Of a DNA stretch of 64,000 nt, positions 25,397 through 53,060 are shown one piece after another (the first letter of the stretch is position 1; each line of letters starts with the position of its first letter). The stretch spans positions 119,642-183,641 of the forward strand of contig JAZKAU010000002.1 of assembly GCA_040388985.1 (NCBI GenBank), in the 5' to 3' direction. The translations under genes were made by a program, and so were the position numbers. Source of the DNA: Patescibacteria group bacterium (lineage in GTDB: Bacteria > Patescibacteriota > Minisyncoccia > Phycocordibacterales > Phycocordibacteraceae). The notes beneath the pieces were generated by a model that did not search any database, had not been told where the DNA came from, and saw only the letters and a list, made by a program, of their open reading frames with translations.

Positions 25397-25544
25397 GCCC
25401 GTACCCTACGTTCAGGGCGTTATATTAGAAGGACATGTCTGCATTCAGTATATTTTCACCACAATAACGAATAAAAACAGTTAATTTGACTATAATTTTG
25501 TCAGAATAGTTGACATAAAATGGGTGGTCCCGGAGAATGATGGG

Positions 25545-26282
25545 ATGGATATGGCGATTTTCAAAGCCCTCGGTATAGACGAAAAGGCTGCCGCTATCTA
25601 CCTTGCCACTCTTCTCCTTGGAACCACATCCGTACAACACATCGCCAGAAAATCGGGCCTCAAACGCCCGACCGTCTACTTGCACTTAGATGACCTTATT
25701 AAGCAAGGCTTGATCGAACATGTCCCGCTCCATAAGAAGAACTATTACCGGGCCACTGACCCCGTGGTAATCGAAGAGCGTTTAAAGAAGAATCTGTCTA
25801 CATTCCAGGCGCAAATGCCGAGGATGCAGTCCTTGCGAGCCGACACGATGGGGAAGCCGCAGGTACGGCTCCTCGAAGGGCAGGAGGGCATAAAGCAGGT
25901 CTACGAGGAGATACGGAAGACTAACAGCTTCAGAGTCTGGTCGAATGTCGGTCAGGAATATGGTCCGTTCCACAATACCTATATGGAGCTCGCCGAAACC
26001 ATCAAGGAGCAAGGGATAGGAGTGCGGGAGATAAGCGCGAATACCAAGGAATCTCGGCGCTATATACGCCTTATCGCCAAAGTCGCCGGCCCATCCTACA
26101 GCGTCCGCATGGCCACCGTTGATGGCATAGAGAACGATACGATCATATATGGGGATGTCATCGCATTGTTCCGCCTACCTGGCTTGAATCAATTTGTGGT
26201 GCGTATTGAGGACAAGACCATGGCCGATACTATGCGCGCCATGTTCGACATGGCCTGGAAGACGGCGCGACCTTTCAAATAG
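25545..26282 (+). CDS. TrmB-family winged-helix transcriptional regulator, paralog 1
   Basis: N-terminal HTH (IFKALGIDEKAAAIYLATLLLG...IARKSGLKRPTVYLHLDDLIKQGLI); C-terminal F..MAW motif shared by all seven paralogs. ORF M1 at 25524 is GTG, so the start is placed at an internal ATG. Confidence 0.7.
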   Translation: MDMAIFKALGIDEKAAAIYLATLLLGTTSVQHIARKSGLKRPTVYLHLDDLIKQGLIEHVPLHKKNYYRATDPVVIEERLKKNLSTFQAQMPRMQSLRADTMGKPQVRLLEGQEGIKQVYEEIRKTNSFRVWSNVGQEYGPFHNTYMELAETIKEQGIGVREISANTKESRRYIRLIAKVAGPSYSVRMATVDGIENDTIIYGDVIALFRLPGLNQFVVRIEDKTMADTMRAMFDMAWKTARPFK

Positions 26283-26331
26283 AACTCGAGGAATTGATGA
26301 AACGCCCAGGTTGTGAGAATATATACCCGTT

Positions 26332-26402
26332 GCGGGTATAGTTTAGTGGTAGAACGTGACGTTGCCAATGTCAAAGCGGGGTTTCGATTACCCCTACCCG
26401 CA
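26332..26402 (+). tRNA. tRNA-Gly (anticodon GCC), no encoded CCA
   Basis: Acceptor GCGGGTA/TACCCGC, anticodon loop TTGCCAA, T-arm GGGGT-TTCGATT-ACCCC, discriminator A. Confidence 0.85.
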
Positions 26403-26431
26403 CTCGAGTTTAGACAGGAAGCATAATGCGA

Positions 26432-26875
26432 TTAAGTAGAGTCCGATTCTCGGCGTTTCAAACTTACGCCTATTCCTGCATTTTCAGAGACATACTTAAT
26501 AGCCTTAGAAAGTAGCTCAGGCTTATCTTTAAACTGCCCTAGTCCTATATTGCAGTTGGAACAAAGTAAGCCTCGAACGACCATGGTTTTATGGCAATGA
26601 TCCAGAACAGGCCTCTTCATAGGGTTTTGACATATACCGCAAAGCCCTCGCTGCCTCTCAAACAAGTCTGCATATAGCTGTCTATGTGGCCCGGCAGTTC
26701 CAAATTTTTGGTTTAGCTTTTTATCCTCAAGACATTGTATGCAACACACTCGGCCCTCTGCCGAAGGATTTTTCGTGCAACTTGGACAAATACCCTTCTC
26801 CTTAAAAGCAGCCTTCCGGCGTCGCTGGTACGCTAAAAAATGTTGTCTTTGTTCCTCGGATTTCCAAGCGCTCAT
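26432..26875 (-). CDS. recombination endonuclease VII family protein (phage T4 endo VII-like)
   Basis: LDHCHKTMVVRGLLCSNCNIGLG motif matching Endonuclease_7 (DHxH...RGLLC..CN); multiple CxxC; 147 aa; adjacent to tRNA-Gly. Confidence 0.65.
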   Translation of the reverse strand: MSAWKSEEQRQHFLAYQRRRKAAFKEKGICPSCTKNPSAEGRVCCIQCLEDKKLNQKFGTAGPHRQLYADLFERQRGLCGICQNPMKRPVLDHCHKTMVVRGLLCSNCNIGLGQFKDKPELLSKAIKYVSENAGIGVSLKRRESDST

Positions 26876-27032
26876 ATTGCTTATATATCCACAATATACT
26901 TCTGTGGAAATAAGAAAAGGGGAAAAGTCTGTTAGTACTGGGGATAAAGGACAAATATTTTAAAAGATATTTATAGGGGCTTTAGGGATATTTTATAAAA
27001 TATTCAGTAAATACAAGCTATTCTTAAAGGCC

Positions 27033-27428
27033 GTGGAACTCAGCAATTCTTCACGTAAGGACATCGGGAACCTCGGAGAGCAGATCGCGGCCGAATATCT
27101 GCGTCGCCGCGGATTCACCGTCGTCGACCGCAATATCGTCCGAAAGACCGGCGAGCTTGATGTGGTAGCGCGCAAGGGAGACGTACTCCACGTTGTCGAG
27201 GTGAAAACCGTGCTCTGCGACAGCTTTCCGAACGACGCAACGAGCGACGACCAGTACGATCCGTCCGTGAATTTACACGCGCACAAGATTCAGAAAGTCG
27301 CGCGGACCGCCGAGTGGTATGTCGCGAGCAAAGACTGGAAAGGGGAGTGGCAGGTGGACGGTATCCTGGTCTGGCTACGCGCGCACGATGGCTTAGCCAG
27401 GGTCCGCTATTTCCCCCAAATCCTCTAG
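27033..27428 (+). CDS. YraN/UPF0102 family endonuclease-like protein
   Basis: GNLGEQIAAEYLRRRGFTVVDRN...GELDVVARKGDVLHVVEVKT matches YraN; GTG start. Confidence 0.7.
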   Translation: MELSNSSRKDIGNLGEQIAAEYLRRRGFTVVDRNIVRKTGELDVVARKGDVLHVVEVKTVLCDSFPNDATSDDQYDPSVNLHAHKIQKVARTAEWYVASKDWKGEWQVDGILVWLRAHDGLARVRYFPQIL

Positions 27429-27629
27429 GACACCTCCCAAAATACCCATCTACTTTGTTGCTCGCTCCGTTGCTCCCTCACCGTATAGCCCAATACGCCT
27501 CGGTACGCTCCTCACTCGCGCCTCGTAGCTGAGCATTTTTGAAAGTGTCCTGATTAGACCTTATATAAAAACCTGATAGAATAGGCAAAACAGGGGGTTC
27601 GAGACCATCTCGGTTCCCATTCTGTCATT

Positions 27630-27700
27630 CGGGGTGTCGTATACCGGTAGTACGACTGCTTTGGGAGCAGTTAGACGGGGTTCAATTCCCCGCACCCCGA
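27630..27700 (+). tRNA. tRNA-Pro (anticodon TGG), no encoded CCA
   Basis: Acceptor CGGGGTG/CACCCCG with C1:G72 and discriminator A, the bacterial tRNA-Pro hallmark; anticodon loop TTTGGGA with G37; T-arm CGGGG-TTCAATT-CCCCG. Confidence 0.75.
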
Positions 27701-27911
27701 CAAATTAGCGAGCGCAGCGAGACAATTTGTCGGGGCGAGCAGGCAAACTGCTTTGCCTGAGTCGGGGAATTGAAAGGCGGAACATGTCTGAGGCTCTGCG
27801 AGGACAGTGAGCCGGGGTGGCGGATACTTAGCGAGTCTTCGAGCTTAGTAAACCGTGACCAATCCCCGCACAATTTAATAAGCAGCAGCCAGTTCTCCAA
27901 AATACTAAGTA

Positions 27912-29003
27912 CTAGTCCGCAACAATCTCCCCACCCTTCACCTTCGGGAAATACACATTCGGTACTCGCAGTCCTGCGTTGTCGAAGTATACGTCTCCAT
28001 CTGCACCGACGAATCTTGCGTCTTTCATATTCTGGATCCACTGCATAGAATCCTTGCTGTACGTCTTAGCTAGAAGCTCAAAGGAGTCGTACCCGACTTC
28101 TGAGCCGAACGGGGGCTGCTCGCCATATTTAGCCACATACTGCTTAGTAAATTCAGCCGTAGGTGCGTTATTGGAAGCCGATACGATACTTCCTTGGATT
28201 CCCGCCAGATCGCTACCCAGTACTGCTTGATATTCTGGTAGTCCCGACTGGATACTCTGATCGAAGACGAAGTACGGGCGAGTGGCAGCAGTTGTAATCG
28301 TGAGGATCTCTTTCACGAGCAGTGCCCCGTCTCTCGGAGCCATGAATAGGCAGACGACATCAGGCTTTGACGCGACTATCGCTAAAGCTTGAGAACGGAT
28401 ATCACTTACATCGCTACCAATATTGAATTTCGGCACGTTCCCGCCATACCCGTCGTTGAAGCCATTATAGAAGTTCTGATACACGGAGGTGGAGTTGCTT
28501 ACGGCCGCTACCGGTTTCTTGTATCCGAGTCGCCTTACTTCAATGCCAAGCGCGTGCTGGACAGGGTTAGCTGCAGGGACTACCTGGAAGATATTGTCAT
28601 CTTCGGCGGGCTCCGTTTGCTCAAAGCCGAGTGCAACCGGCTTCTTCTCCGTATGAACGGCGTCATATATGACGTCTATAGTGAATGTCGTAAGCACCGC
28701 GTATGCGTCAGGAGCATTGAATTCTTGAAGCTTTTTGTATGCGGAGAGTCCGGTCGTCGAATCGAAGTGATCGTCCTCAGTCGTTGCTTCGAACTTGAGA
28801 TCATGAGAACCGTTCCACTGCTCTAGTGCGAGATTAAAGCCCTTCACATATCCCTCCCCAACCGCAGCATACTGACCGGTCATGCCGGCAATGACTCCTA
28901 GATGAACCACGGATGCTTCCTTCTTGTGGCCGATAGAACTTACGGCATAGGCAAGTATGCCAAGAATAACGATTGCGACAGCAACGACCAGAAGTTTCTT
29001 CAT
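27912..29003 (-). CDS. ABC transporter substrate-binding protein, LivK/branched-chain amino acid-binding type (orphan, no permease adjacent)
   Basis: N-terminal signal anchor, periplasmic-binding type I fold motifs (GVIAGMTGQYAAVGEGYVKG); 363 aa. Confidence 0.7.
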   Translation of the reverse strand: MKKLLVVAVAIVILGILAYAVSSIGHKKEASVVHLGVIAGMTGQYAAVGEGYVKGFNLALEQWNGSHDLKFEATTEDDHFDSTTGLSAYKKLQEFNAPDAYAVLTTFTIDVIYDAVHTEKKPVALGFEQTEPAEDDNIFQVVPAANPVQHALGIEVRRLGYKKPVAAVSNSTSVYQNFYNGFNDGYGGNVPKFNIGSDVSDIRSQALAIVASKPDVVCLFMAPRDGALLVKEILTITTAATRPYFVFDQSIQSGLPEYQAVLGSDLAGIQGSIVSASNNAPTAEFTKQYVAKYGEQPPFGSEVGYDSFELLAKTYSKDSMQWIQNMKDARFVGADGDVYFDNAGLRVPNVYFPKVKGGEIVAD

Positions 29004-29213
29004 AAATATAAGGGTTAGGGAAGTAAAGGCGCACGGAGATTCTTTACTTATGTGGGCAATCCTGGCGTAGTTATATTATAACGTCAAGTATTTTGTCTAA
29101 AATATGAGCATCAAATATCGCAAAAACCTTCATTCTATAAGGTTGTATGAAAAACTTGCTACTTATCATCAAAATTATTGACTATTTTATAACAATGCAT
29201 ACACTTCAAATAT

Positions 29214-29960
29214 ATGGACGTCTCCGAGTCGCTAACGGCCCTGGGCTTGAATGAGAAGCAATCGACTATCTACGTAGCATTACTGCAACTCGGGCGAGGA
29301 AGCGCGTATTCGATCGCCGATAAGGCGGGGATAAAGCGACCGACCGCCTACGTCATTCTAGGAGAACTTATTGAGAAGGGGCTCGTGTCTCGGGTGCCAC
29401 GGGTGCGCAAACAGCTATACGTTGCCGTATCACCGGAACAAGCCTTCGCATCTGCCGAGGAGAGACTGGCCGCGGCCAAGCAAAAACTGCCGGAGCTGCT
29501 AGCGATGACCAAGGGCGCAGATTCGAAAGTGAACGTGCTTTTTTTCGAAGGCGTGAAGGGTATAAAGCAGGTTATGGAATATAAGCGGGAGGAAGATAAA
29601 GGTAAAGAGTTCGTGGGCTTCTACGCTATGACGAAGAACGTGCCCAAAGACCTGCTTGAATATTTTGAAGAATGGAATGAGAAAGTCCGCAAGAGAGGTA
29701 CAACCATGCGCGGTATCGTACCGGATCACTCAACCCTTGCCTTCCATCGCTCGCAGGACAAGCACTTGGGAAGGGACATGAAGATAGTGCCGTATAAGCA
29801 ATTCTCGTCGGAGGTCGCCATAGATATCTCCGAACGCATAGTGCGTATCCACGACTATAAGAATCTCCAAGGCGTTGCCATAGAGAACGCGGACGTAGCG
29901 AAGACGATGCGAGAGATATTCGAGATGTTGTGGAGTCGCATCCCTGAGCGGGAAACATAG
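29214..29960 (+). CDS. TrmB-family winged-helix transcriptional regulator, paralog 2
   Basis: LTALGLNEKQSTIYVALLQLGRGSAYSIADKAGIKRPTAYVILGELIEKGLV HTH; C-terminal REIFEMLW motif; ATG start. Confidence 0.7.
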   Translation: MDVSESLTALGLNEKQSTIYVALLQLGRGSAYSIADKAGIKRPTAYVILGELIEKGLVSRVPRVRKQLYVAVSPEQAFASAEERLAAAKQKLPELLAMTKGADSKVNVLFFEGVKGIKQVMEYKREEDKGKEFVGFYAMTKNVPKDLLEYFEEWNEKVRKRGTTMRGIVPDHSTLAFHRSQDKHLGRDMKIVPYKQFSSEVAIDISERIVRIHDYKNLQGVAIENADVAKTMREIFEMLWSRIPERET

Positions 29961-29997
29961 CCAGACCGAGTCCGAATATGGTATCCTCGCTCTTACA

Positions 29998-30068
29998 GCG
30001 GGATTAGTTTAATGGTAGAACATCAGTTTTCCAAACTGAGAGCAGGAGTCCGATTCTCCTATCCCGCA
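29998..30068 (+). tRNA. tRNA-Trp (anticodon CCA), no encoded CCA
   Basis: Acceptor GCGGGAT/ATCCCGC, anticodon stem CAGTT/AACTG with loop TTCCAAA, T-arm AGGAG-TCCGATT-CTCCT, discriminator A. Confidence 0.8.
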
Positions 30069-30189
30069 CATAACCATAACTCCATCCTCGTCTAATAATG
30101 TTTCTCGATGAGCCAACGAATGTTCGCGGGCTTAAAAGAGCGGAGGAATTTTGTGAACTCCTCCGATGACAGTTTCTTTCGGCAGGATG

Positions 30190-30477
30190 TCAGCCCGCCA
30201 CAGGGATGCCGTGCGCTTCATGCCAACCAGCGTATGTGCACGTGTCGGTTTCCGTGTGTTCCGTCACGTAGCGCCGGTATCGCCTGAACGCCGCCTTGTT
30301 CTTTCCGAAGTCATACATCGCCCCGCAGTCTGCGCACGAATGTGGGACTTCGCCTGCCAGGAACGCATCCAACGTCGCCTTAGGCACGGGCGGTTGCGGC
30401 CGCAGCTCTTTTGGCTGAAGGCACACGGCGCATTTGAAAGGGTTGGATGGGCGTGACAGGGTCATCATCATTTTCAT
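30190..30477 (-). CDS. small hypothetical Zn-ribbon-like protein (CxxC...CxxC)
   Basis: Internal ATG preceded by GGAGAA SD; KCAVCL and SCADCG pairs; the opposite-strand ORF was judged spurious. Confidence 0.4.
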   Translation of the reverse strand: MKMMMTLSRPSNPFKCAVCLQPKELRPQPPVPKATLDAFLAGEVPHSCADCGAMYDFGKNKAAFRRYRRYVTEHTETDTCTYAGWHEAHGIPVAG

Positions 30478-30594
30478 TGCATTCTCCACGGGTTTGGGTT
30501 GTCTCAAGATCAGTCTCGATGAGGCTCCCATTCGTATGCGCGAATCGTTGCCTCAATGAAGGGCAGGAATTACTTCCTGCCAGTCAGCACTTAT

Positions 30595-30891
30595 TCACGC
30601 TTTCGGATCGCGATCCCACGAGGGGTCGCATCCCCAGGATTTGCATACCTCAGCGTGAATCTGGACCACTCTTTCTCGGACCCTTGTCGGAGTGTCGGAG
30701 GGGAAATCCAGCTTGACGATCGTGCCGTTGTTGAAGAGAGGGAGGTCGATTTTTTCACGAAGCGCGGCCTCGATATCCTTTTCCTCGTACCCCGACTCCG
30801 TCTGTGCCTGAGCAAGCAGCTCGAGAAGTTGCTTGAAGGGGCAGCACAGCAGTCGGTGGCGAAGGTCATCGCGCTCTATTTGGGTAAGCAT
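30595..30891 (-). CDS. hypothetical protein
   Basis: Internal ATG (MLTQIERDD...) preceded by GGGGAGA SD; 98 aa; forms a two-gene unit with 30190..30477, divergent from TrmB paralog 3. Confidence 0.4.
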   Translation of the reverse strand: MLTQIERDDLRHRLLCCPFKQLLELLAQAQTESGYEEKDIEAALREKIDLPLFNNGTIVKLDFPSDTPTRVRERVVQIHAEVCKSWGCDPSWDRDPKA

Positions 30892-31023
30892 GCTGGTCTC
30901 CCCGATTGGTTGAAGGTGCTTTACTTCTAGAGTAACTATATTATAATTAATTGGTAATGTCAAAAAGTACTGATGATATAAAAGCGATATAATTGTATTG
31001 ATAAACAATGCTAATATAGATAT

Positions 31024-31791
31024 ATGTCAAAGAAGACTGATGAAGTCGATTCAGAGGAATTGCTTAAAAAATTAGAAGAGATAGGTCTTTCTAAGAAGGA
31101 AGCCCAGGTATATCTGGCCCTTTTGCCACGTCGGGACACGGGAACTTCTAACATCATCCGTGCCACAGGACTCCATGGGCAGTTCGTCTACGATGCTCTG
31201 GAACGTCTTGAGACACTCGGCCTGGCGAAACATGTCATCCAGAAAGGCAGAAAGAAATTTAGTGCGAACACACCCGGCAGACTCATCGCTCTTGTTGATG
31301 AGAAGCGACTAGCCGCACACTCGATTGCGCGAGAACTTCAAAGTCGCTTCCAGGGGGCGCACGAGCAAGATTTCGAAGTGTATCAAGGGCGCGACGCGTT
31401 CGTTGCGCATGAATTTGAGCTTATGCAAGAAATGCCCGAAGGCTGCACAATCGATATTCTTGGTGGGGGTGGTAGTAAATATATGGGGATACTCGCGGAA
31501 GAAATGAATGAGCTGGAGATTCTTCGCAACAAGCGCGGCATCAAGATTCGCTACATAAGCACGGTGAGCCAGGGGGAGTCACTCCGAAAAATGGCAGGGA
31601 ACAGGAAGAACTTTGAGTATCGAATCTTTCCGAACCTTGAAGGCGGCATTATAGACACCGATATCTGGCCCGACAGGCTGATCTTGCAGTTCTATGGCGA
31701 ACCCATCCTCTCATTCTCTATTACGAGTAAGGAGATAGCAACCAGCTATCGCGAATTCTTTAACGCGCTTTGGACTTTGTCGAAACCTTAA
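31024..31791 (+). CDS. TrmB-family winged-helix transcriptional regulator, paralog 3
   Basis: LLKKLEEIGLSKKEAQVYLALLP HTH; C-terminal REFFNALW motif. Confidence 0.7.
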   Translation: MSKKTDEVDSEELLKKLEEIGLSKKEAQVYLALLPRRDTGTSNIIRATGLHGQFVYDALERLETLGLAKHVIQKGRKKFSANTPGRLIALVDEKRLAAHSIARELQSRFQGAHEQDFEVYQGRDAFVAHEFELMQEMPEGCTIDILGGGGSKYMGILAEEMNELEILRNKRGIKIRYISTVSQGESLRKMAGNRKNFEYRIFPNLEGGIIDTDIWPDRLILQFYGEPILSFSITSKEIATSYREFFNALWTLSKP

Positions 31792-31864: not shown

Positions 31865-32275
31865 CTAGTTACTAGCCTTTACCAAAGCCAACACCCTTTC
31901 TTTAATCTCCGCCCCGACTTCCTTCTGGACTTCTTCTGAGGCTGAGACAATGTCCGGAATATCAGACCAATTAATAAGTTTTTTGGCTTTTTGTACAAAG
32001 CCAGGTAAAGGGTAGGTGGTAAGTATCACAACAATGTCGGCCTTCGTTACCATTTCTTTCGTAAGCCACTTACGCTTTTGAGAATGCGCATCAATTCCAA
32101 AATGTTCTAGAAGTTCATGTACCATTGCCGGCACCTCCATATCGATACCCTGTATGGAGTTAATGAGATCAACTCCGGCGCTCGAAGCGCTTTCGGTTGT
32201 CGAAAGATGACGGTAGAACGCCTCGGCGATCTGACTTCTGATCGCATTCGCACGACAGATAAAGAGAGTTTTCAT
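31865..32275 (-). CDS. low-molecular-weight protein-tyrosine phosphatase / ArsC-type arsenate reductase family
   Basis: CRANAIRS P-loop (CX5R) at the N-terminus; 136 aa; start immediately after the upstream stop. Confidence 0.8.
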   Translation of the reverse strand: MKTLFICRANAIRSQIAEAFYRHLSTTESASSAGVDLINSIQGIDMEVPAMVHELLEHFGIDAHSQKRKWLTKEMVTKADIVVILTTYPLPGFVQKAKKLINWSDIPDIVSASEEVQKEVGAEIKERVLALVKASN

Positions 32276-32276
32276 A

Positions 32277-33037
32277 TTAATCCGAGATCTTTTTAGTGAA
32301 GAGAAGACCGTTATCTAGCGCTGCAAGATAGTAGCTCTTTACGCGGTGATCAGTTCGAGTCTTGGGTAGATGAGTGCCGCAGACTTTCTGTAGGTAATCT
32401 TCCATCAAGTGGCCGTAGTCGTTAATATTGTCAGCTACGATAAGTCCGTCGACGGACATAAGGGGAATGAGCTGCTCTAGGTACTTGCCGTAATTTTCCT
32501 TATCGGCGTCGAGAAACACAAAATCAATCGGCCCGTATTGCCAGTTCCTCAGTACTGCAGACGCTTCTGCTTCGATCAGATTTATATTTTTAACCCTTGC
32601 TCCCGTAAAGTACTTTCTCGCTAACTTGGCCTTTATGGGAAGAAGTTCAATGGTATGTACGACTCCCCCGGTAATGCTGGCAGCATGAGAGAGATGTAGG
32701 GCTGCGTAGCTAGCAGAAGTACCAATTTCGAGAATCGTCTTAGCGTCGGTGAGAATGACCAGGTTCTCAAGTACCTGGGCACTCTTAGCAGGGACGCTCC
32801 AGAGTTTTATACTTTCTCCCCCGTGCTTACGTCCGTAGGTGTGTGCTGCGTCAGCGTCGGTATACTCCCAAGAGTCTTCAATTAATTCGATATCCTCAAT
32901 GGCCTGGCGCATAGAGCGTGATTTTTCTTCAAAGAGCCTTTCCCCACCTTTGTTTGATACGGATATTCCTAGTCGAGCTAAGACCAGCCTACTGATGACC
33001 TGAGTATCTATATGTTCTAGTGCAGTCAACATGCTCA
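32277..33037 (-). CDS. class I SAM-dependent O-methyltransferase (family 3, caffeoyl-CoA OMT-like)
   Basis: LEIGTSASYAALHLS...VFLDADKENY motifs; the start was moved to the internal ATG directly abutting the upstream stop. Confidence 0.75.
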
Positions 33038-34006
33038 TTACTCGGTTAGGCTCTTGAAGAAAGCCGGGCCTCCACCCCAGATCGGTCCACCAGAACACTG
33101 AACGGCCGCAGCACCTGCTTCCAAGTAGTCAGATACGTCTTGAGTGGTAAGCACGCCCCCACAACCAATGATATCGACCGCAAGGTCGTGAGCCCTTAAG
33201 AATCTTATAGTCTTGAGATTCCCGGCCTTAAGAGCTCGCCCCGAGAGTCCTGCGCTCCTACTGACCGTTCCATCAGCTCTTTTAATCTGGATTTCTGTAC
33301 CGCGGACGACTTGCGGAAGGCCGTTTGAGACGATAACGGCTGAGATAATCTCGGAGTATTCTTTCAATAGTTTTTGCAATTCATCCATAAAGGTCTCGGT
33401 AACAGTAGGGCAGTCACTAAAATCATAAGACGGATACTCAGCACCAAGCTGTGTGAGATCATTACTGGTTAGATACGGGGATAGCTTGAACCAGAGGGGT
33501 TTGGTAACTGACAGTTTCTTGATCTCGATAAATAGCTCCCTCAATGAATGAATTGAGTACGCAAGCGGCGCATGTCCCATAGTCGGACAGCTGCAATTTA
33601 TTTCGATTGCGCCTACTCGTGATACATTCTGATGCGTTGCGATAGCTTTAAGAGAACGAAGATATTCATCCGTGCTATATCCCGCAATGCTGATGACTAT
33701 CGGCTTCGGAGAGTTGGGTGGAAGGTTATCCATTGTATCGATAATGCCCAAATTGCGCATGCCATTAGCATGCAGCCCTCCCTCGGCGAAGAACGTTTGG
33801 TAAGCGCCATGCACTCCCGGCCAATTCAGCACGCCGGCATTCCCCGTACGCTCATTAGGAGTGATAGAACCGATGGTCACTGCTCCTACTACGTCTACGA
33901 TATTAAGATAATCCTTAATATCTGGTGAGAGGGGAGACTTTACTACGCCTCCACCCAGGAAGACAGGGGAGCTAACGCTTAGGCCTCCCACGCGGTATCT
34001 TTTCAT
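33038..34006 (-). CDS. dihydroorotate dehydrogenase-like FMN-dependent oxidoreductase (class 1 DHOD/DHPD family)
   Basis: TIM-barrel DHOD motifs (VGAIEINCSCPTMGH; IIGCGGVLTTQDVSDYLEAGAAAVQ); the ORF N-terminus to 34108 is over-extended, so the start is at MKRYRVGG. Confidence 0.7.
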   Translation of the reverse strand: MKRYRVGGLSVSSPVFLGGGVVKSPLSPDIKDYLNIVDVVGAVTIGSITPNERTGNAGVLNWPGVHGAYQTFFAEGGLHANGMRNLGIIDTMDNLPPNSPKPIVISIAGYSTDEYLRSLKAIATHQNVSRVGAIEINCSCPTMGHAPLAYSIHSLRELFIEIKKLSVTKPLWFKLSPYLTSNDLTQLGAEYPSYDFSDCPTVTETFMDELQKLLKEYSEIISAVIVSNGLPQVVRGTEIQIKRADGTVSRSAGLSGRALKAGNLKTIRFLRAHDLAVDIIGCGGVLTTQDVSDYLEAGAAAVQCSGGPIWGGGPAFFKSLTE

Positions 34007-34111
34007 TGACATAAGTATAATAGATTGCATAAATACATACAAAAATGTATACAGATTATCAAAAAATATGATTTTACTGTTATAATATATAGTATTAATG
34101 TTGTTCAAGTT

Positions 34112-34852
34112 ATGGACAGAAATATAAAGATACTGGAAGAATTTGGACTTTCTGAAGAAGAGGCGCAGGTATATCTGGCTGGCCTCTCCCTTGGGCCCAC
34201 TACTATTCTCAAATTAGCTAAGACGGCTGAGGTCCAGCGGACTTCTGTGTACCGAGTAGTCGAATCGCTGCGCCAACACGGTCTGATGAAAACCGAGCTC
34301 AAGGGCTTGAAGAAGCTTTACGCGGTTGAAAGTCCACATAACCTGAAACGGGTCCTCGAGGAGAAGGTGGAGCAAATGAACGATATCCTTCCCGGATTGC
34401 TATCGATTTATAAGAAGCAAGGTAAGGATACGCTGATTAAATATCACGAGGGGATAGAGAGCGTTAAGAGCGTATACGAATCTCTTTTGCGTGAGAATCG
34501 TAGCGGAGAGCCATATTATGTCATCTCCTCTCATCAAGAATGGTACAAGCTGGATGAAAAATGGTTTGAAGATTTTTCTGAACGTAGAAACCGAGAGCAT
34601 TTCGACTTCAGATTTTTCCTTCTTGATTCTGAACCAGCGCGCTTGCTTAAGGAGCGAGAGGAAGCTCTAGGTATAAAGGTAAAGATATTACCTTCTAGCC
34701 TTGATTTCACTTCGATACTTATCCTGACAAAGGATAAGATTTACATTCATAACTTCGAACCGCCGATCGAAGGCCTGGTGATCGAGAACCAGGACATGAT
34801 CACCATGATGCTGCAGGTATTTAAAATAATGTGGGAAGCAATCCCCGAGTAG
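34112..34852 (+). CDS. TrmB-family winged-helix transcriptional regulator, paralog 4
   Basis: ILEEFGLSEEEAQVYLAGLSLGPTTILKLAKTAEVQRTSVYRVVESLRQHGLM; C-terminal LQVFKIMW; the ORF N-terminal extension was rejected. Confidence 0.7.
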   Translation: MDRNIKILEEFGLSEEEAQVYLAGLSLGPTTILKLAKTAEVQRTSVYRVVESLRQHGLMKTELKGLKKLYAVESPHNLKRVLEEKVEQMNDILPGLLSIYKKQGKDTLIKYHEGIESVKSVYESLLRENRSGEPYYVISSHQEWYKLDEKWFEDFSERRNREHFDFRFFLLDSEPARLLKEREEALGIKVKILPSSLDFTSILILTKDKIYIHNFEPPIEGLVIENQDMITMMLQVFKIMWEAIPE

Positions 34853-34861
34853 CTAAGTCAA

Positions 34862-35581
34862 TCACTTCAAACTCCGCCACTCCTTATCAAATATATCTTC
34901 GTGATATTCGGCGATCATGTCGTTCGCTATAAGCACACCGAACAGATTTTCGAATGAGATAAGTGCCACGTGACCGTTAAAGACGATCATATTGATTGCC
35001 GGCGTGTATCCCTTCTCTAGGAATCGATATCGGTAATTCTCGCTTCCCTTATATTTTCTACGTTTTACTCCCAACTCTGTCCTTTCGATAAGCACCTTCG
35101 CATCAATACCTTTTTCTTTCACTCTTTCGACGAATCTGTCTTCCTTTGCAGCAAAGACTTCCAGATACTTATCTGGAGAGAAGATACTTTTTATATATCC
35201 CGCCTTCTGCACAATTTCCGTGTATAAGTCTTGCAGCCCGTCCTTATCCTGATATAGCGTAATGCTCGGCGTCTGCTTCACCGATGAAAAGACGACGGTT
35301 AGCGCTTCCAAGTTCTTCTCAAATTCAAATGCTGCGCTGTGATACTTCGTTACGAGCGATTTCGGATTTTCTGCCAAATAATACAGTCGTTTCCCGAGTA
35401 CGGTCTTCTTTATATAGTTCTTCTCCAAGAGATTCTCTAGATACGCATACAGCGTCGTCCTGTTTATCCTTGTCGCACTCGATATGCCTGCCAGATTTAG
35501 TCGGCCTCCTCGCAAGATAGCCAGGTATACGCGAGACTCATTCTTTGTCAGGCCCAACTTCTCCAATCCCTGGGTTTCCAT
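34862..35581 (-). CDS. TrmB-family winged-helix transcriptional regulator, paralog 5
   Basis: LEKLGLTKNESRVYLAILRGG...RINRTTLYAYLENLLEKNYI; C-terminal EDIFDKEW. Confidence 0.7.
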   Translation of the reverse strand: METQGLEKLGLTKNESRVYLAILRGGRLNLAGISSATRINRTTLYAYLENLLEKNYIKKTVLGKRLYYLAENPKSLVTKYHSAAFEFEKNLEALTVVFSSVKQTPSITLYQDKDGLQDLYTEIVQKAGYIKSIFSPDKYLEVFAAKEDRFVERVKEKGIDAKVLIERTELGVKRRKYKGSENYRYRFLEKGYTPAINMIVFNGHVALISFENLFGVLIANDMIAEYHEDIFDKEWRSLK

Positions 35582-35771
35582 CCATATACAGTATGCCTAT
35601 ATGAATAAATGTCAAAAATAATGAATCTTTTATCTATATAACTTAATAAGATGGCTCATTACATAGCTAATAAAACAGAATATTTGAATATTTTGTCAAT
35701 AAATAATAAGGTCACCGCAGAAGGGAAGGCAGCCTCTTCAACGACTCGATTCGCTGTTTGGGAGAGAAACG

Positions 35772-36146
35772 ATGGGAAACGTTCGTGATCAAGGAAGAAA
35801 AATTAGGATTCTCGAATCTGCTTACCGTGTGGCAGATGCCTTCGCAAGAGCAATCTTAGTAGCGGTCCTAACGGCTTTGACTGTTGTGATTGGACTTCTA
35901 GGTGCTCAGCTTGGAGCTGTCTGTGGTGCCGTCGCATGTGCACTCGTAGGCGTCCTCTTGGTTGTCACTACTGTGTTCCTTTGCGTGTTAAGTATCGGTG
36001 CACTGGAACCGTTCCCTGATCCTCAACAGCTCGAAGCTATGTGGGCATGGGGGTGGGCTGCAGGAGGCTGGGTTGGGGCGTTCTTGCCTCCAATGATCTT
36101 CTTGTGGACGTTGTTCCTACTTCTCAACCGTGAAGATTACCCGTGA
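35772..36146 (+). CDS. small membrane protein (3 TM), unknown function
   Basis: GGGAGAG SD; hydrophobic helices; 124 aa; followed by a 9-bp hairpin. Confidence 0.45.
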   Translation: MGNVRDQGRKIRILESAYRVADAFARAILVAVLTALTVVIGLLGAQLGAVCGAVACALVGVLLVVTTVFLCVLSIGALEPFPDPQQLEAMWAWGWAAGGWVGAFLPPMIFLWTLFLLLNREDYP

Positions 36147-36278
36147 AAAATAATTAGAATCGGTCGCTCCATCTATGGGGCGACCGATCTACATATCGAG
36201 ACCGATCACTCATGATAAACGAGCAAGCTTAAACGAAAATCTCTCAATAGCAGTTCATTCATAGGGTAGAATATCCAG

Positions 36279-37911: not shown

Positions 37912-37958
37912 TCATCGCAAAAGAAATAAGGCTATTTTAAGTATTTTTTGAATATAAA

Positions 37959-41856: not shown

Positions 41857-41977
41857 TTCATAATCCCCTTGATTGGAGAGCAGCGGCTATCGCTGTCTAG
41901 GCATATAAAAACAAAATCTGTCAAATACGTCAAATAATGTCGGACATTTGTTGACAAATATTCGACAACACTCTAGC

Positions 41978-42745: not shown

Positions 42746-42756
42746 GCTGGAACGAT

Positions 42757-43323
42757 ATGAAAATAGGCATCATGGGCGCGGAAGGGAGCTTCTCGCAGGA
42801 AGCCGCCGAAGCATATATCAAGAAGGAAGGACTGAAAGACGCTGAACTTGCGTTCTTGGTCCTTACGGAAACGGTCCTGACTGCGCTTGAAGCGGGCGAG
42901 GTAGATCTGGGGGTCTTTCCAATAGAGAACAGCAATGGCGGCATCGTTATCGAAGCGGTACATGCCATGGCAAAGCACCGCTTCCACATTAAGACGATGT
43001 TCGAGATAGACGTGCATCAGAACTTGCTCGCGCTTCCCGGAACGACCGCAGACAGTATCAAGGTCATCACTTCACACGACCAAGCGCTCAAGCAGTGCCG
43101 TATGTATCTGAAACGCGTGTGGCCGGGCGTCGATATCGAGGAATATGAGGATACCGCTAAGGCAGCAGCTGACCTTGCGAACGGTACGCTCCCGAAGACG
43201 ACTGCCGTCATAGCCTCAAAAACCGCTGCTGCGCTCTACGGACTTGATATCCTAGAAGCGAGCATCCAGGACCTGAAGTTCAATTATACGAGTTTCGTGG
43301 TGGCAGAGCGTTTGGAAAAGTAG
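42757..43323 (+). CDS. prephenate dehydratase (PDT) domain protein lacking an ACT domain
   Basis: MKIGIMGAEGSFSQEAA N-terminus typical of the PDT domain; 189 aa; starts 12 nt after the paralog 6 stop (same operon). Confidence 0.6.
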   Translation: MKIGIMGAEGSFSQEAAEAYIKKEGLKDAELAFLVLTETVLTALEAGEVDLGVFPIENSNGGIVIEAVHAMAKHRFHIKTMFEIDVHQNLLALPGTTADSIKVITSHDQALKQCRMYLKRVWPGVDIEEYEDTAKAAADLANGTLPKTTAVIASKTAAALYGLDILEASIQDLKFNYTSFVVAERLEK

Positions 43324-43371: not shown

Positions 43372-44055
43372 TCACGATACGCGGCCGAGCAGCTCATATC
43401 CGAGGTCATAGTGCGTTTGCAGAAGGACGCGAGCGTCGCCGAGAGCATCCCGGAGCCTTCTTATAAGATCCACTATTCCCCAATAGCCTTGTTTACCGTG
43501 AAGCATGAGGTGCTCATGCAAATACGAGTTAGAAACGATCTCCAGCCTATTCGCCAGGATGACTAAGGCGTTGATCTGTCGCCCTGTAAGCGCGATCATC
43601 TTCCCGTTCACCCATACCTTATAGGCTAACTCGTCGATCTCAAGGACTTGGCCGTCCTTCTCGAATCGAAGAATTCGCGGGCCCAAACTCGTCGTTCGCC
43701 AGAGCGTTTGGCGGATGGCAAGTTCGATAAGCCGTAGGTTCGTCGGCCCAAGCAGCACGTTATCGCAGCCGGCGTCCAGGAATCGAGCGCAGCGATCCGC
43801 CCACGCTTCATCCCACGGTCCTTCCATGATGCGGATAATCGGCGCTTTGAAGCCTGTATCCCGTATGCTCGAGATAGTTTCGATTCCGATTCGCGCGTCC
43901 ATGCCGAATAATACGGACTGATATGGATGCTGTTGAAGAAGCTCGCACAAGTGATGCGGCTGGGTATCCGGAGCCGTAGCGACCGAGTACCCGCCTTGCG
44001 CGAGAAACCACGTAGCCTGGGAATCAATCCCGGCCGTCAATATCTCAGTGCTCAT
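43372..44055 (-). CDS. OmpR/PhoB-type winged-helix DNA-binding protein with degenerate receiver-like N-terminal domain (atypical orphan response regulator)
   Basis: C-terminal trans_reg_C motifs (LTGRQINALVILA...VDLIRRLRDAL); N-domain retains a candidate acceptor Asp (VLFGMDA) but lacks the conserved Lys; AGAGGAG SD before ATG 44055. Confidence 0.6.
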   Translation of the reverse strand: MSTEILTAGIDSQATWFLAQGGYSVATAPDTQPHHLCELLQQHPYQSVLFGMDARIGIETISSIRDTGFKAPIIRIMEGPWDEAWADRCARFLDAGCDNVLLGPTNLRLIELAIRQTLWRTTSLGPRILRFEKDGQVLEIDELAYKVWVNGKMIALTGRQINALVILANRLEIVSNSYLHEHLMLHGKQGYWGIVDLIRRLRDALGDARVLLQTHYDLGYELLGRVS

Positions 44056-44165
44056 GATAGGTACTCCTCTACACTGAGCGCAGTAAACGCTAGTCAATAC
44101 TAAGTGTCAAGAAATGAAGAAAAGGCCGCCCGTGAGGGCGGCCTTTTCTTCATTCGGAACCGATA

Positions 44166-44438
44166 TTACTTAACTGCGTCCTTGAGCGCCTTAGCTGCGC
44201 GGAACTTAGGAGTCCGGGTAGCAGCGATCTGGATGGTCTCACCGGTGCGAGGGTTGCGGCCGGTGCGAGCTGGGCGAGCCTTGGCGGTGAAGATACCGAG
44301 ACCTGCGATAGAAACCTCATCTCCTCCCTTGAGGCCGGAAACGATGCTGTCGATGACGCACTCTACTGCGCGGTCAGCGTCTGCCTTGGTTCCGCCGAGC
44401 ACATCCTGCACCTTCGTTACGATATCTGCTTTGTTCAT
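44166..44438 (-). CDS. hup: DNA-binding protein HU
   Basis: 90 aa; GLGIFTAKARPARTGRNPRTGE arm motif. Confidence 0.92.
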   Translation of the reverse strand: MNKADIVTKVQDVLGGTKADADRAVECVIDSIVSGLKGGDEVSIAGLGIFTAKARPARTGRNPRTGETIQIAATRTPKFRAAKALKDAVK

Positions 44439-50056: not shown

Positions 50057-50169
50057 CTCTCTGCGTTACCTCGTTCGCTTTCAGGGGCAGAGCTTGATAT
50101 TTGTTGGTAGTATGGTAAAAATCATTCGGTTGCCAATCCGGCACTGAATAATCTACAGGAGACGTTGTT

Positions 50170-50460
50170 ATGCCGGGAGGAAGCATGAATACCCGCCCCT
50201 TCGATCCCACCAGTAAGCTGGACTGGTTCAGCGCGGATTTCGGAGCTCTGTTCTACACCACGATCGTCGTATGCATCGTACTCGCCGTTCTGGTCGGCGG
50301 AAGCTATGCCATCGTGTCATACTTCTCCGTTCAGACTCAGATCCTGCTGCTGATTGGCGCGAGCGTGGCGATCGCCTTCGTGATCGTGTTCTGCCTCCGG
50401 CGGAACTGGATGGTCCACGGCGAACCGCGGCAATTCCGCTATATCTGCCGCTGGCTCTGA
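50170..50460 (+). CDS. small membrane protein (2 TM), unknown
   Basis: 96 aa with two long hydrophobic helices. Confidence 0.4.
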   Translation: MPGGSMNTRPFDPTSKLDWFSADFGALFYTTIVVCIVLAVLVGGSYAIVSYFSVQTQILLLIGASVAIAFVIVFCLRRNWMVHGEPRQFRYICRWL

Positions 50461-50569
50461 CCGATCGCAGCGGTCAGATGTTCGGGGAGCGCGTCTGACA
50501 AACGCGCTCTTCCCTTTTCCCCTAATTTAAAAAGTTATACAGGCGAAGCTTCGGTATACTGTATGCAGC

Positions 50570-52315
50570 ATGCAAGTACCGGAAAGCGAGCTGAAGAGTT
50601 TCATACTTGATTCGGGACTAGTGTCCCGACAGAATCTCGATGCTGCCGAAGCGGAGGCGAAGGAGCGCGCTCAATCGGTGGGCGACATTCTCGTAAATTG
50701 GGGAATGCTTTCGAGCGACGCGCTTAGGCGCACGAAGGCATACGTGCTCGGCATCCCGTTCGTGAATCTTCGCGACGCGAATCTTTCGTTCGATGTCCTC
50801 TCGCTGATACCGGAACCTATCGCCCGCGGCCGCAATATCGTCGCATTCGTCAGGAACGGGAACGAGCTTGAAGTGGCTATGCTCGACACGCGCGACCTGT
50901 CTGCCGTTGACTCGACCATCGCCAAGACCGGGCTTAAAGTCCTTCCGCGTCTCACTGACGAGGAGTCGATGCGTCATGCGCTCCTGCACTACCAGAAGCT
51001 GCTCAAAGCGGAATTCGGCGACCGCATAGCAAGCGAAGTCGGCAGGCTTACGCCGACACGAGGAGAAGGGAAGGCTGCATCCGCAGAAGAGCTCGCGCTG
51101 GTGGCACAAGATCTTTCCATCGTCCGCATCGTCGATACGTTGCTGCGCCATGCGATCCTGCAGAATGCGTCGGACGTGCATGTCGAACCGCTCGAGAAGG
51201 ATGTCCTCGTTCGCTACAGGATCGACGGCGCCTTGCATGACGCGATGACGCTCCCGTCTACGGCGAATGCTGGCATCGCAGCGCGCATAAAGACGCTCGC
51301 GAACCTCGCGCTCGGAGAGACGCGAGCGCCGCAGGATGGGCGCTTCAAGCTCGAGACCGGCGCGGAATCGGTATCCTTCCGCGTCTCGGTCCTGCCAACG
51401 CACTCAGGCGAGAAGATCGTCATGCGCCTTCTGCGCGAGACGGGAGAGGGCTTCACGCTCGACACGCTCGGCTTCCACGGCGCCTCCCAGGAATGCGTCC
51501 ATAAAGCCATACGCGCGAAGCGCGGACTGATCCTCGTCGCGGGCCCTCGTGGCTCCGGAAAGACGACGACGCTCTACACTATCCTCGACATCCTGAATAC
51601 TCCGGACGTGAGCATCGCGACTATCGAAGACAGGGTCGAGTATAGGATGAACCGGGTGAATCAGACGCAGACGGATCCGGAAATAGGGCTCACGACCGCT
51701 CATGGCCTGCGCGCTCTTCTTCGCCAGGACCCCGACATACTCATGGTGGGTGATATCCGCGATAGCGAGACGGCGGCGCTTGCGGTGAACGCTGCTCTGA
51801 CCGGACACTTGGTAGTCGCGAGCATTACGGGTGATACGGCAGCGGGCGCCGTGCTACGGCTTCTGGATATGGGTATCGAATCATCACAGATAGCTAGGGC
51901 ACTCACGCTCGTCGTGGGGCAGCGCCTGGCGCGCGGGCTCTGCGACCCTAAGGAGGCCTACTCGCTCGACGCCTCGTCGCGCATAGATATCGCAGAGGCG
52001 ACGTCCTTCAAGGCCGCATTCGATGCCTTGGTGTCCGAGGGCTTGGTGCAGCCGGGGACGCTCATAGATACGCTGCCGTTTTATAAAGCCGTTCCGTCTG
52101 CGCTCTGCGATGACGGATATCGCGGGCACACCGCTCTGCAGGAAGTCCTACCGATCTCTCCCGCTATCCGCGATCTCATCCTCGAAGAGGCGTCCGCCGC
52201 TGAGATAGAGACCCAAGCACGAAAGGAAGGCATGCTCACGCTCCTTGAAGACGGTATCTATAAGGCGACGAGAGGGTTCACGAGTTTGGAAGAAGTGCTT
52301 CGTATAGCTACCTAA
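50570..52315 (+). CDS. pilB: type IV pilus/type II secretion assembly ATPase (PilB/GspE family)
   Basis: N-terminal GSPII_E_N-like domain, Walker A GPRGSGKTTTLY, Asp box, His box; 581 aa; TATACT box 9 nt before the ATG. Confidence 0.85.
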   Translation: MQVPESELKSFILDSGLVSRQNLDAAEAEAKERAQSVGDILVNWGMLSSDALRRTKAYVLGIPFVNLRDANLSFDVLSLIPEPIARGRNIVAFVRNGNELEVAMLDTRDLSAVDSTIAKTGLKVLPRLTDEESMRHALLHYQKLLKAEFGDRIASEVGRLTPTRGEGKAASAEELALVAQDLSIVRIVDTLLRHAILQNASDVHVEPLEKDVLVRYRIDGALHDAMTLPSTANAGIAARIKTLANLALGETRAPQDGRFKLETGAESVSFRVSVLPTHSGEKIVMRLLRETGEGFTLDTLGFHGASQECVHKAIRAKRGLILVAGPRGSGKTTTLYTILDILNTPDVSIATIEDRVEYRMNRVNQTQTDPEIGLTTAHGLRALLRQDPDILMVGDIRDSETAALAVNAALTGHLVVASITGDTAAGAVLRLLDMGIESSQIARALTLVVGQRLARGLCDPKEAYSLDASSRIDIAEATSFKAAFDALVSEGLVQPGTLIDTLPFYKAVPSALCDDGYRGHTALQEVLPISPAIRDLILEEASAAEIETQARKEGMLTLLEDGIYKATRGFTSLEEVLRIAT

Positions 52316-52325
52316 GTAGATCGAC

Positions 52326-53060
52326 TCATTTGCTCGCCTTCCAGAGAAAGTCAAAGTAATTCTGGTAGTTCTTTGCAAGTTCAGCGTTGATGATTTCAAC
52401 GACGGTGTACGGCTCAGTGAAGGTTTGGATACAGATACGATCTTGTAATATTTCTACATTATTGGTGTCGCTGCCAATGAGCGGGTTGAAGCGCAGTTCG
52501 GTTAGACCATTGCCTTCTGCAAGCAATGACCGTATCTGCGGGAAAGAGGTCTTAGCGATGCCTCGCAAACGTAACCTCTTTTCTCTTTGTATCCGGGTTA
52601 CTTCCTTTTCTGTCGCAAGACCTACGACGGCATGCCAATGAGGCGAGGTACCAAGATACCGATGAAGCGCACCAGGTTCAGCAAGCTCATAGGAGCGTAC
52701 GACGTGACGACGGAATTCATCGATACCTTCATATACGATCACTTCCTGGCGATTCTTCTTCGTAAGGTGCGAGAGTTCTTCTATCGCATGCTTGGCTATG
52801 CGCTCCTTTTCTTCGACATCAGCCAGAAGACGGGTAGGGGAGAGGAGTTTGAACATTAATATGCCTCGCTCGCGCGCGCTGGTAATAAGTTTCTTTTCGA
52901 CAAGTTCTTCAAGCGCGGTATAGACGATGTTGCGGTGCATCCCTGTCTGCTTTATGAGCTCCCCAGCCTTCGCGCTCCCTGCCTTTGCAAGTGCGAGATA
53001 GAGCACGGTCTGATTCTCCGTGAGGCCAAGCTTCTGCAGATTGTCGAAAATGGCTGTCAT
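52326..53060 (-). CDS. TrmB-family winged-helix transcriptional regulator, paralog 7
   Basis: LQKLGLTENQTVLYLALAKAGSAKAGELIKQTGMHRNIVYTALEELVEKKLI; C-terminal QNYFDFLW. Confidence 0.7.
   Translation of the reverse strand: MTAIFDNLQKLGLTENQTVLYLALAKAGSAKAGELIKQTGMHRNIVYTALEELVEKKLITSARERGILMFKLLSPTRLLADVEEKERIAKHAIEELSHLTKKNRQEVIVYEGIDEFRRHVVRSYELAEPGALHRYLGTSPHWHAVVGLATEKEVTRIQREKRLRLRGIAKTSFPQIRSLLAEGNGLTELRFNPLIGSDTNNVEILQDRICIQTFTEPYTVVEIINAELAKNYQNYFDFLWKASK

Follow-up and report, generated by a model that had tools for sequence, protein, structure and literature searches.

Regulators of the TrmB family are known from archaea, where TrmB, TrmBL1, Tgr and VNG1451C act as sugar sensors and carry a PF01978 domain with a conserved tyrosine. 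Archaeal TrmB-type regulators lie beside binding-protein-dependent transporters and control glycolytic genes, and the characterised ones bind inverted repeats located on promoter elements or on the transcription start, several of them regulating their own expression (PMC4158304). TrmBL2 (TK0471 / PF0496; PDB 5bpd, 5bpi and 5bqt), a chromatin protein and global repressor of Thermococcales, binds coding as well as intergenic DNA non-specifically (PMC4158304). It is a short protein (~264 aa) in which a winged helix is followed by a long helix and then by a PLD-like domain, whereas TrmB sensu stricto (~340 aa) contains a PF11495 subdomain carrying six of its seven sugar-contacting residues. In TrmB, the long amphipathic helix that follows the winged helix mediates dimerisation. 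Here we describe seven members of this family encoded by a 64-kb stretch of the genome of a Patescibacteria group bacterium (contig JAZKAU010000002.1 of assembly GCA_040388985.1), the whole of which is referred to as the window in the rest of the text.

The small genomes of Patescibacteria encode few recognisable regulators, and no treatment of TrmB-type regulators in Patescibacteria or in the candidate phyla radiation was found in the literature searched. The seven regulator open reading frames (ORFs), named T1 to T7, lie between 25.5 and 53.1 kb of the window (Table 1). NCBI lists T2-T7 as 'helix-turn-helix domain-containing protein' and leaves T1 unnamed in its lists, while the JGI name for relatives is 'sugar-specific transcriptional regulator TrmB'. 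The reading that we favour, to which we assign a probability of about 0.7, is that these genes code for old, functionally separate local regulators of the TrmBL2 type, each with its own DNA sites and with neighbours involved in nutrient uptake or metabolism. Their family, architecture and mode of action are already known from archaea, and the cluster is an ordinary expansion of a transcription-factor family, not a new kind of system. What is new is the family and fold behind a generic annotation, together with predicted operators for five orthologous groups, which are linked to solute-binding proteins, amino-acid genes and a tpiA-pgk operon and thereby provide testable hypotheses.

All seven proteins (239-255 aa) passed the gathering score of the Pfam TrmB model PF01978 (40-58 bits compared to a cut-off of 25.6, E 9e-16 to 3e-10), in agreement with the original prediction of seven paralogues with a TrmB-type winged helix. 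They align end to end, including a homologous C-terminal domain, with an identity of 17-28% in this alignment. Residues G, Y, A, Y, L and P are invariant in the N-terminal half, as are I, F and W at the C-terminus, the F and W being those of the F..LW motif that had been singled out beforehand. The Pfam helix-turn-helix models of MarR and IclR scored near or below threshold against T1-T7 and covered the winged helix only. A hidden Markov model built from T1-T7 found no eighth member in the six frames of the 64-kb window, even at E<=10. A tyrosine of the recognition helix is invariant in T1-T7 and in 42 homologues, and it aligns with the ...NRVYDT... segment of 3qph, falling on Y50 of TrmB, which in Pyrococcus furiosus is a DNA-recognition residue (PMC4158304). 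The recognition helices nevertheless differ among the seven proteins.

An AlphaFold2 model of T2, computed with 42 homologues, had a mean pLDDT (per-residue model confidence) of 88.8. In it, a winged helix is followed by a long helix (residues 74-101) and then by an alpha/beta domain, with pLDDT falling to 64-81 in the long helix of this monomer model. Foldseek returned as best matches the TrmBL2 structures 5bpi, 5bpd and 5bqt over the full length (E ~1e-12), and the C-terminal domain of the model also matched PLD3, PLD and F13 (E ~1e-4). In a PDB profile search, T1-T7 matched TrmB (3qph) and TrmBL2 (5bqt and others) via their N-terminal 100 residues. The HxK(x)4D catalytic motif of PLD enzymes was found in none of the seven C-terminal domains, and the model thus points to a likeness to PLD superfamily enzymes at the level of the fold only, with a PLD-like domain predicted to be catalytically dead. 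No match to PF11495 was found in T1-T7, and the NCBIfam equivalog models were missed widely, those for TrmB and TrmBL1 scoring 15-33 bits against cut-offs of 500-650 and that for TrmBL2 (NF041141) 20.9 bits at best against a cut-off of 530. Taken together, the missing subdomain, the missed equivalog models and the lack of the catalytic motif place T1-T7, as judged from sequence and model, among TrmB-family proteins of the short TrmBL2 architecture that are orthologous to no characterised member. They share with TrmBL2 a length in the range of ~250-265 aa, the order of domains, the absence of the sugar-binding subdomain and a C-terminal F..(L/Y)W motif that lines up. They differ from it by an identity of only ~18%, by being bacterial, by their many paralogues and by the conserved specific site found at a sigma-70 promoter for each well-sampled group (see below). 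A thiol sensor of the OxsR type was rejected, since each of the seven proteins contains 0-1 cysteines. A role in anti-phage defence was likewise rejected, as PADLOC gave weak matches (E 5e-8 or worse), nearly all confined to the winged helix and to the models Csa3, CasR and CARF.

Because the best full-length structural match is a chromatin protein, of which T1-T7 have the length and domain set, again with the sugar-binding subdomain missing, the seven proteins might, like TrmBL2, be nucleoid-associated and coat DNA regardless of its sequence. We consider this highly improbable. A coating protein does not account for seven divergent paralogues with different recognition helices, nor for a distinct and sharply bounded conserved site in each well-sampled group, at a fixed distance from the group's own start codon; in addition, a canonical HU gene is present in the window, and 21 bits against the 530 demanded by the NCBIfam TrmBL2 equivalog is a poor score for a TrmBL2 functional equivalent.

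We assigned 359 retrieved homologues to paralogues by BLAST against T1-T7. Among the top matches listed in the profile searches, 81 were orthologues of T1 (45-69% identity), 121 of T2 (52-82%), 93 of T3 (best 57-80%), 27 of T6 (61-72%) and 37 of T7 (52-76%). No remote orthologues of T4 or T5 were among these top matches: T4 belongs to a 90%-identity cluster of 10 sequences, and T5 forms a cluster by itself. Relatives of T2 came from Paceibacteria, Parcubacteria, Adlerbacteria, Kaiserbacteria and similar groups, and the housekeeping genes of the window (NusA, RNase Y, ClpP, a PilB-type ATPase and RecJ) are of bacterial type. Several of the orthologous groups also occur together on single contigs of other genomes. 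Since paralogues within the window are 17-30% identical whereas orthologues elsewhere reach 45-82%, the duplications would predate the divergence of these lineages, and at least five of the copies (T1, T2, T3, T6 and T7) are, by this sequence criterion, separate ancient orthologous groups spread across Paceibacteria.

These figures do not support the original prediction of a dense local expansion of one regulator family that diversified in place, and they contradict it as a recent event. Amplification of a single regulator and cargo unit in this genome, followed by divergence of the copies, would account for the presence of seven members within 27.5 kb, all with a divergent partner, while the rest of the window has none. 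Several genomes have orthologues of T2, T3 and T6 in one and the same CCA/tRNA/mgsA/RNase Y neighbourhood, and some of the seven may thus descend from a very old tandem array. As an account of the cluster it is nonetheless quite unlikely, given the low identity between paralogues and the five groups with 27-121 orthologues at 45-82% identity in many other genomes. Moreover, the most similar pairs (T3-T7, T2-T4 and T1-T2) do not follow the neighbour order expected of a tandem series, and the cargo genes are mutually unrelated. Compared with L006, the closest of our reference relatives (labelled L###), whose housekeeping proteins are 67-93% identical to those of the window, whole blocks are present or absent, not duplicated: APC+T1 and the T3/T4/T5 block occur only in the window, and T2 and T6 stand on a common backbone.

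Species-representative genomes were scanned with T2 orthologues, yielding 80 loci, and a single metagenome scan was carried out with T1 orthologues, each scan being seeded from the orthologue alignment of a single regulator. Upstream of T2, a 19-bp block, T[CT][AG]TCAAAAWTATTGAC[TA]A, was present in ~80 of 82 orthologous loci, whose proteins are 35-100% identical. Most of its positions carry 1.0-1.9 bits, with a single central position at 0.5, compared to less than 0.8 bits in the flanks, and the block ends 26-30 nt before the ATG. It covers the -35 of a promoter made of TTGACT, a 17-bp spacer and TAnnnT, with the ATG only 5-7 nt further on, so that the mRNA is probably leaderless. A position weight matrix of the block gave a single high match in the window (site 1, 38 bits), the next one being the T1 site at 8 bits, and across 1.2 Mb of related loci it reached 16 bits or more at only 17 other sites, the majority of which lie in upstream regions of T2. 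This scarcity argues against the block being a generic form of promoter. A perfect extra T2-type site (38.5 bits) was noticed at 6325-6345 of L017, 2 kb upstream of T2 and just past a radical-SAM operon; it was rejected as a T2 target, no plausible gene lying downstream on that strand.

A second site, GTCAA-N6-TG[AT][ACT]T, was found in 27 of 69 T2 loci compared to 0.4% in shuffles, mostly 84-87 bp upstream of site 1. Its 6-bp spacer is invariant, and in 24 of the 27 loci its GTCAA arm constitutes the -35 of a divergent promoter with a TAnnnT element. In four loci with a LivK-type partner (L051, L052, L053 and L060), a box resembling TTACAAAGTTTGAATA, located ~75-100 nt upstream of site 1, replaces the usual second site.

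In T1, a palindrome with the consensus TTTGTCAGAAATATTGACAAAAT was recovered from 27 of 36 unique orthologous upstream regions, ending 24-26 nt before the ATG; orthologues carry it in the form TTTGTCAG-AAATAT-TGACAAAAT, at the same promoter position as in the window. Judged by its promoter geometry, T1 is more likely to start at the ATG (25545) than at the GTG of the longest ORF. The sites of the remaining groups are built on related motifs. The T3 form, GTCAA-N7-TGATGATA, is kept in L138 and L014 and, less strictly, in L137. A second match to the T3 pattern lies inside codons 1-7 of T3 itself, and T3 orthologues keep both the N-terminal residues MSK..DE and the DNA pattern that encodes them, the residues after these being variable, which suggests constraint at the DNA level on these codons and fits an operator at the transcription start. 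The T7 form, TTGTCAA-N8-TGATGATA, is kept in all of L133-L136, and the T6 form, TTGTCGGACAA-ATGT-TGACAA-N6-GACAAC, shows the same arrangement over the gene's own -35 in L139, L140 and L004. A hexamer TATCAC, a poor -10 with its final T missing, stands 7 nt before the ATG in all T7 orthologues (53058-53074 in the window; L133-L136). The same hexamer forms one arm of TATCAC-N5-GTGATA, the motif of archaeal TrmBL1/Tgr, and T7 adjoins glycolytic genes; this may be a coincidence.

Only near-identical copies are available for T4, and T5 is a singleton, so that no footprinting was possible for either. A candidate palindrome, ATACAT-N6-ATGTAT, lies at 34033-34050 upstream of T4. An identical 14-mer, AATATTTTGTCAAT (complement ATTGACAAAATATT, which contains TTGACA), occurs at 35687-35700, upstream of T5, and at 37899-37912, between the unknown genes 37477-37911 and 37959-38783, both being divergent intergenic regions; it may represent a shared T5 site.

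The pattern GTCAA-N5-9-TGATGA matched the window four times compared to 0.15 expected (0 of 100 shuffles reached four), and all four matches fall inside the control regions of T2, T3 or T7. A search for one motif upstream of all seven genes was negative: a generic TTGAC theme recurs, and the sites are paralogue-specific. The archaeal operators TACT-N3-AGTA and TATCAC-N5-GTGATA likewise differ from the TTGAC-based sites described here, where the polymerase is bacterial. At least four of the regulators thus appear to have a DNA docking site of their own, and the conservation of such group-specific sites points to sequence-specific autoregulation and local regulation. As in T2, a TAnnnT-like hexamer lies 5-8 nt before the ATG, with no visible Shine-Dalgarno sequence, in ~80 T2, ~27 T1 and several T3 and T7 orthologues, and the regulator genes look leaderless.

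We propose that each group would bind, as a dimer, its own site of ~20 bp, consisting of a TTGAC(A/T) hexamer and an inverted or related arm 5-8 bp away. The predicted site types are TGTCAG-N6-TGACAA for T1, TCATCAA-N5-TTGACTA for T2 with GTCAA-N6-TGACT ~85 bp upstream, GTCAA-N7-TGATGA for T3, GTCAA-N8-TGATGA for T7 and an array of GACAA repeats for T6. The hexamer would double as the sigma-70 -35 element, either of the regulator's own promoter (T1, T2 and T6) or of that of the divergent neighbour (T3, T7 and the second site of T2), and a protein bound there would therefore occlude RNA polymerase. Such occlusion would repress the regulator's own gene, the divergent gene or both until a signal releases the protein, the PLD-like domain being the likely sensor. 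The genes under control would include those for solute-binding proteins, the permease, the decarboxylase, the prephenate dehydratase domain (PDT) protein and tpiA-pgk, that is, functions in uptake and in central and amino-acid metabolism. This layout resembles that of divergent local repressors of the TetR, MarR and IclR types, placed head-to-head with their target and with an operator over the -35 or -10 in the shared intergenic region, and autoregulation would be expected; unlike in those families, the sensor domain here has a PLD-like fold. A bolder proposal is that Paceibacteria in general rely on at least five orthologous TrmBL2-type repressors as their main gene-specific regulation, with operators derived from -35 hexamers and an inverted arm, specificity residing largely in the arm and in the 5-8 bp spacer, and portable cassettes of a regulator with bidirectional control that would face differing uptake or metabolic genes from one genome to the next and pile up at a tRNA cluster. 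We hold it as a tentative idea, conceivable but doubtful in this full extent.

Several points weigh against the interpretation of T1-T7 as separate, site-specific local regulators. The binding of TrmBL2, their closest full-length structural match, is non-specific, and the subdomain with which TrmB contacts its sugar is missing. The sites of T3, T6 and T7 rest on 3-4 orthologous loci each, and T4 and T5 are without any footprint. The conserved blocks include the -35 hexamer, and part of their conservation is hence promoter conservation. The second T2 site of the window is degenerate and has no -10 at the canonical distance, which makes control of the LivK gene of the window uncertain. Upstream neighbours were called by a longest-ORF heuristic, and some of the small ORFs may be spurious. 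Finally, the difference in gene blocks between the window and L006 could reflect either insertion in the window genome or deletion in L006.

Table 1. Regulator genes, candidate operators and neighbouring genes of the window (positions count from its first nucleotide).
Feature	Position	Strand	Details
T1	25545-26282	+	245 aa from ATG; longest ORF from GTG at 25524; PF01978 E 1.3e-10
T2	29214-29960	+	248 aa; PF01978 E 9e-16
T3	31024-31791	+	255 aa; MES2225535.1; PF01978 E 2e-10
T4	34112-34852	+	246 aa; MES2225539.1; PF01978 E 7.5e-14; start per NCBI 34112, not 34025
T5	34862-35581	-	239 aa; MES2225540.1; PF01978 E 2e-12
T6	41978-42745	+	255 aa, database copy 252 aa; PF01978 E 6e-13
T7	52326-53060	-	244 aa; PF01978 E 3e-10
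T1-type operator candidate	25497-25518	+	TTTGTCAG-AATAGT-TGACATAA; over -35 TTGACA of T1 promoter
T2 site 1 (predicted)	29165-29185	+	ATCATCAAAATTATTGACTAT; over -35 TTGACT of T2 promoter
T2 site 2 (predicted)	29083-29098	+	GTCAAGTATTTTGTCT (GTCAA-N6-TGTCT); second-site architecture
T3 site A (predicted)	30958-30978	+	TGTCAA-AAAGTAC-TGATGATA; complement TTGACA-17 bp-TATAGT for divergent small ORF; among the four GTCAA-N5-9-TGATGA matches
T3 site B (predicted)	31024-31044	+	ATGTCAAAGAAGACTGATGAA; inside T3 codons 1-7; pattern match GTCAA-N7-TGATGA
T6-type operator candidate	41938-41969	+	TGTCGGACA-TTTGT-TGACAA-ATATTC-GACAAC; over T6 -35
T7-type operator candidate	53121-53145	-	TTGTCAA-CATATTCA-TGATGATATA; TTGACA faces divergent operon; pattern match
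Leaderless-type starts (putative)	25519-25547, 29186-29216, 31000-31026, 35579-35618, 53058-53074		
tRNA set Arg(TCG), Gly(GCC), Pro(TGG), Gly(TCC)	23919-30069	+	~6 kb, spread by APC+T1 and LivK+T2 units
APC-type amino-acid permease	24011-25396	-	AA_permease_2 E 1e-31; divergent from T1
LivK-type solute-binding protein	27912-29003	-	Peripla_BP_6 E 9e-23; divergent from T2
Two small ORFs	30190-30891	-	From translations; divergent from T3; likely ATG at 30891, with GGGGAG leader
LMW-PTP / O-methyltransferase / DHODH-like operon	31865-34006	-	LMWPc, Methyltransf_3, DHO_dh; divergent from T4; first gene with likely ATG at 34006
Small membrane protein + Orn/Arg/DAP-type PLP decarboxylase	35772-37403	+	Orn_Arg_deC_N, Orn_DAP_Arg_deC; divergent from T5
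Secreted beta-rich protein	41176-41856	-	Signal peptide; divergent from T6
Prephenate dehydratase domain (PDT) protein	42730-43323	+	PDT E 7e-47; overlaps T6 stop
HU	44166-44438		Canonical HU gene
Haem-oxygenase-like, tpiA, GDSL hydrolase, pgk	53164-57017	+	Haem_oxygenas_2, TIM, Lipase_GDSL_2, PGK; divergent from T7

The upstream neighbour of each of the seven regulator genes is divergently oriented, and each has a transport or metabolic gene head-to-head with it, T6 overlapping the PDT gene in addition. Most of the functions given to these neighbours were confirmed by Pfam, and the beta-rich protein beside T6 has a signal peptide; of the two ORFs beside T3 described as a Zn-ribbon unit, only one (30190-30531) contains a CxxC...CxxC pattern. 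Pfam gave nothing usable at E<=1 for the small ORFs beside T3, T5 and T6, and the translation of the small membrane protein beside T5 contains hydrophobic helices. The T6 partner is weakly similar (E 8e-5) to Gcw_chp-type partners of T1 orthologues. Divergent genes coding for 225-240 aa adjoin T6 in L004 and L140, and the PDT gene follows T6 also in L006 and L139.

In other genomes, the nearest upstream ORF was divergent in ~70 of ~80 T2 loci and in 39 of 42 T1 loci. The T2 partner was a radical-SAM protein in 13 loci and a LivK-type binding protein in 12 of 82, window included, with other classes in the rest. T1 partners included a LivK-type binding protein (7 loci), a Gcw_chp-type secreted protein (5), an aminotransferase (4) and an NMT1-type binding protein (4), and in none of the other T1 loci (43 in all, window included) is the partner an APC permease. 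Of five T7 loci, three (the window, L133 and L136) have T7 divergent from a unit of the form small ORF-tpiA-(GDSL)-pgk, and in a fourth, L135, such a unit lies nearby. The idea of a modular regulator with its cargo therefore stands in part: T1 and T2 orthologues keep the control region and a divergent gene, and the pairings T7-tpiA/pgk and T2-LivK recur, but the identity of the gene changes between genomes and the pairing of T1 with APC is confined to the window. The position of T1 and T2 orthologues beside LivK-type binding proteins, and of T7 beside tpiA-pgk, parallels the sites of archaeal TrmB regulators, although the neighbours suggest amino-acid signals here rather than the sugar signals of archaeal TrmB. 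Liv-type ABC clusters at 7851-9865 of L133 and 5001-9669 of L135 (binding proteins, ABC_tran and BPD_transp_2) hold more TrmB-family paralogues, head-to-head with binding-protein genes; the LivK-type gene of the window stands alone, with no permease or ATPase genes.

As noted at the outset of this work, two of the regulators are followed by a tRNA gene within 50 nt: the distance to the tRNA-Gly gene is 50 nt for T1 and 38 nt for T2. A tRNA placed directly after the regulator was rejected as a feature of the family, being seen only in the window and L006, while elsewhere T2 lies within a few kb of the tRNA set. The set of four tRNAs was found near T2 orthologues in at least 10 loci and is compact (~1-1.7 kb) in L021, L054 and L059. 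L006 has the order CCA enzyme-tRNA-Arg-tRNA-Gly-EndoVII-UPF0102-tRNA-Pro-...-T2-tRNA-Gly-mgsA-...-T6-PDT-HU-RNase Y-ClpP. The APC+T1 unit of the window sits between tRNA-Arg and tRNA-Gly(GCC), two genes separated by 40 nt in L006. A block of 8.9 kb between tRNA-Gly(UCC) and mgsA, comprising small ORFs, T3, the PTP/O-methyltransferase/DHODH operon, T4, T5, the membrane protein, the decarboxylase and two unknown genes, is present in the window only and not in L006. T3 orthologues elsewhere adjoin the same Exo_endo_phos and CCA genes, and T6 orthologues keep their place between mgsA and HU/RNase Y; together with the tRNA set, these kept positions suggest that part of the linkage is old.

Within 10 kb on either side of the T2 orthologue, 57 of the 80 loci (which include L004 and L005) contained one family member, 15 contained two, 4 three, 1 four and 3 five. 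With five in the same span, the window is at the dense end of this range, and clusters of 2-5 members recur near T2 orthologues. The starting point would have been a conserved neighbourhood already carrying T2 and T6, and in other genomes T3, around whose tRNA cluster units of a regulator and its neighbour (APC+T1; the 8.9-kb T3/T4/T5 block) would later have accumulated in variable spots.

APC+T1 and T3/T4/T5, the two blocks that border on tRNA genes and are missing from L006, could belong to a horizontally acquired genomic island, with regulators that are island-borne or associated with mobile elements or defence. The GC content is 0.487 in the 8.9-kb block and 0.444 in T4+T5, the lowest of the region, compared to 0.538 for the window; sequences at least 90% identical to T4 are found in contigs of several samples; and genes for an orphan DNA methylase and an EndoVII lie nearby. 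No integrase or transposase was found by Pfam scans of the window, however, and the 8.9-kb block is bordered neither by att-type direct repeats nor by copies of the 3' end of tRNA-Gly. The PADLOC matches reflect the generic winged helix of Csa3/CasR, T2, T6 and T7 are embedded in conserved housekeeping synteny, and the cargo is metabolic. An island is an unlikely explanation for the regulators as a whole, and would at most account for the origin of some blocks, not for what the proteins do.

Three further genes of the window deserve mention. On the minus strand, amid the regulator units, 40306-40998 codes for an N6/N4 DNA methylase for which no restriction partner could be recognised, and 26432-26875 for a protein of the endonuclease VII family. 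Also on the minus strand, 43372-44097 codes for a protein of 241 aa that matches an OmpR-type Trans_reg_C domain below threshold (23 bits, cut-off 26.2) and shows only a hint of a receiver domain; it may be a degenerate or atypical response regulator adjoining HU.

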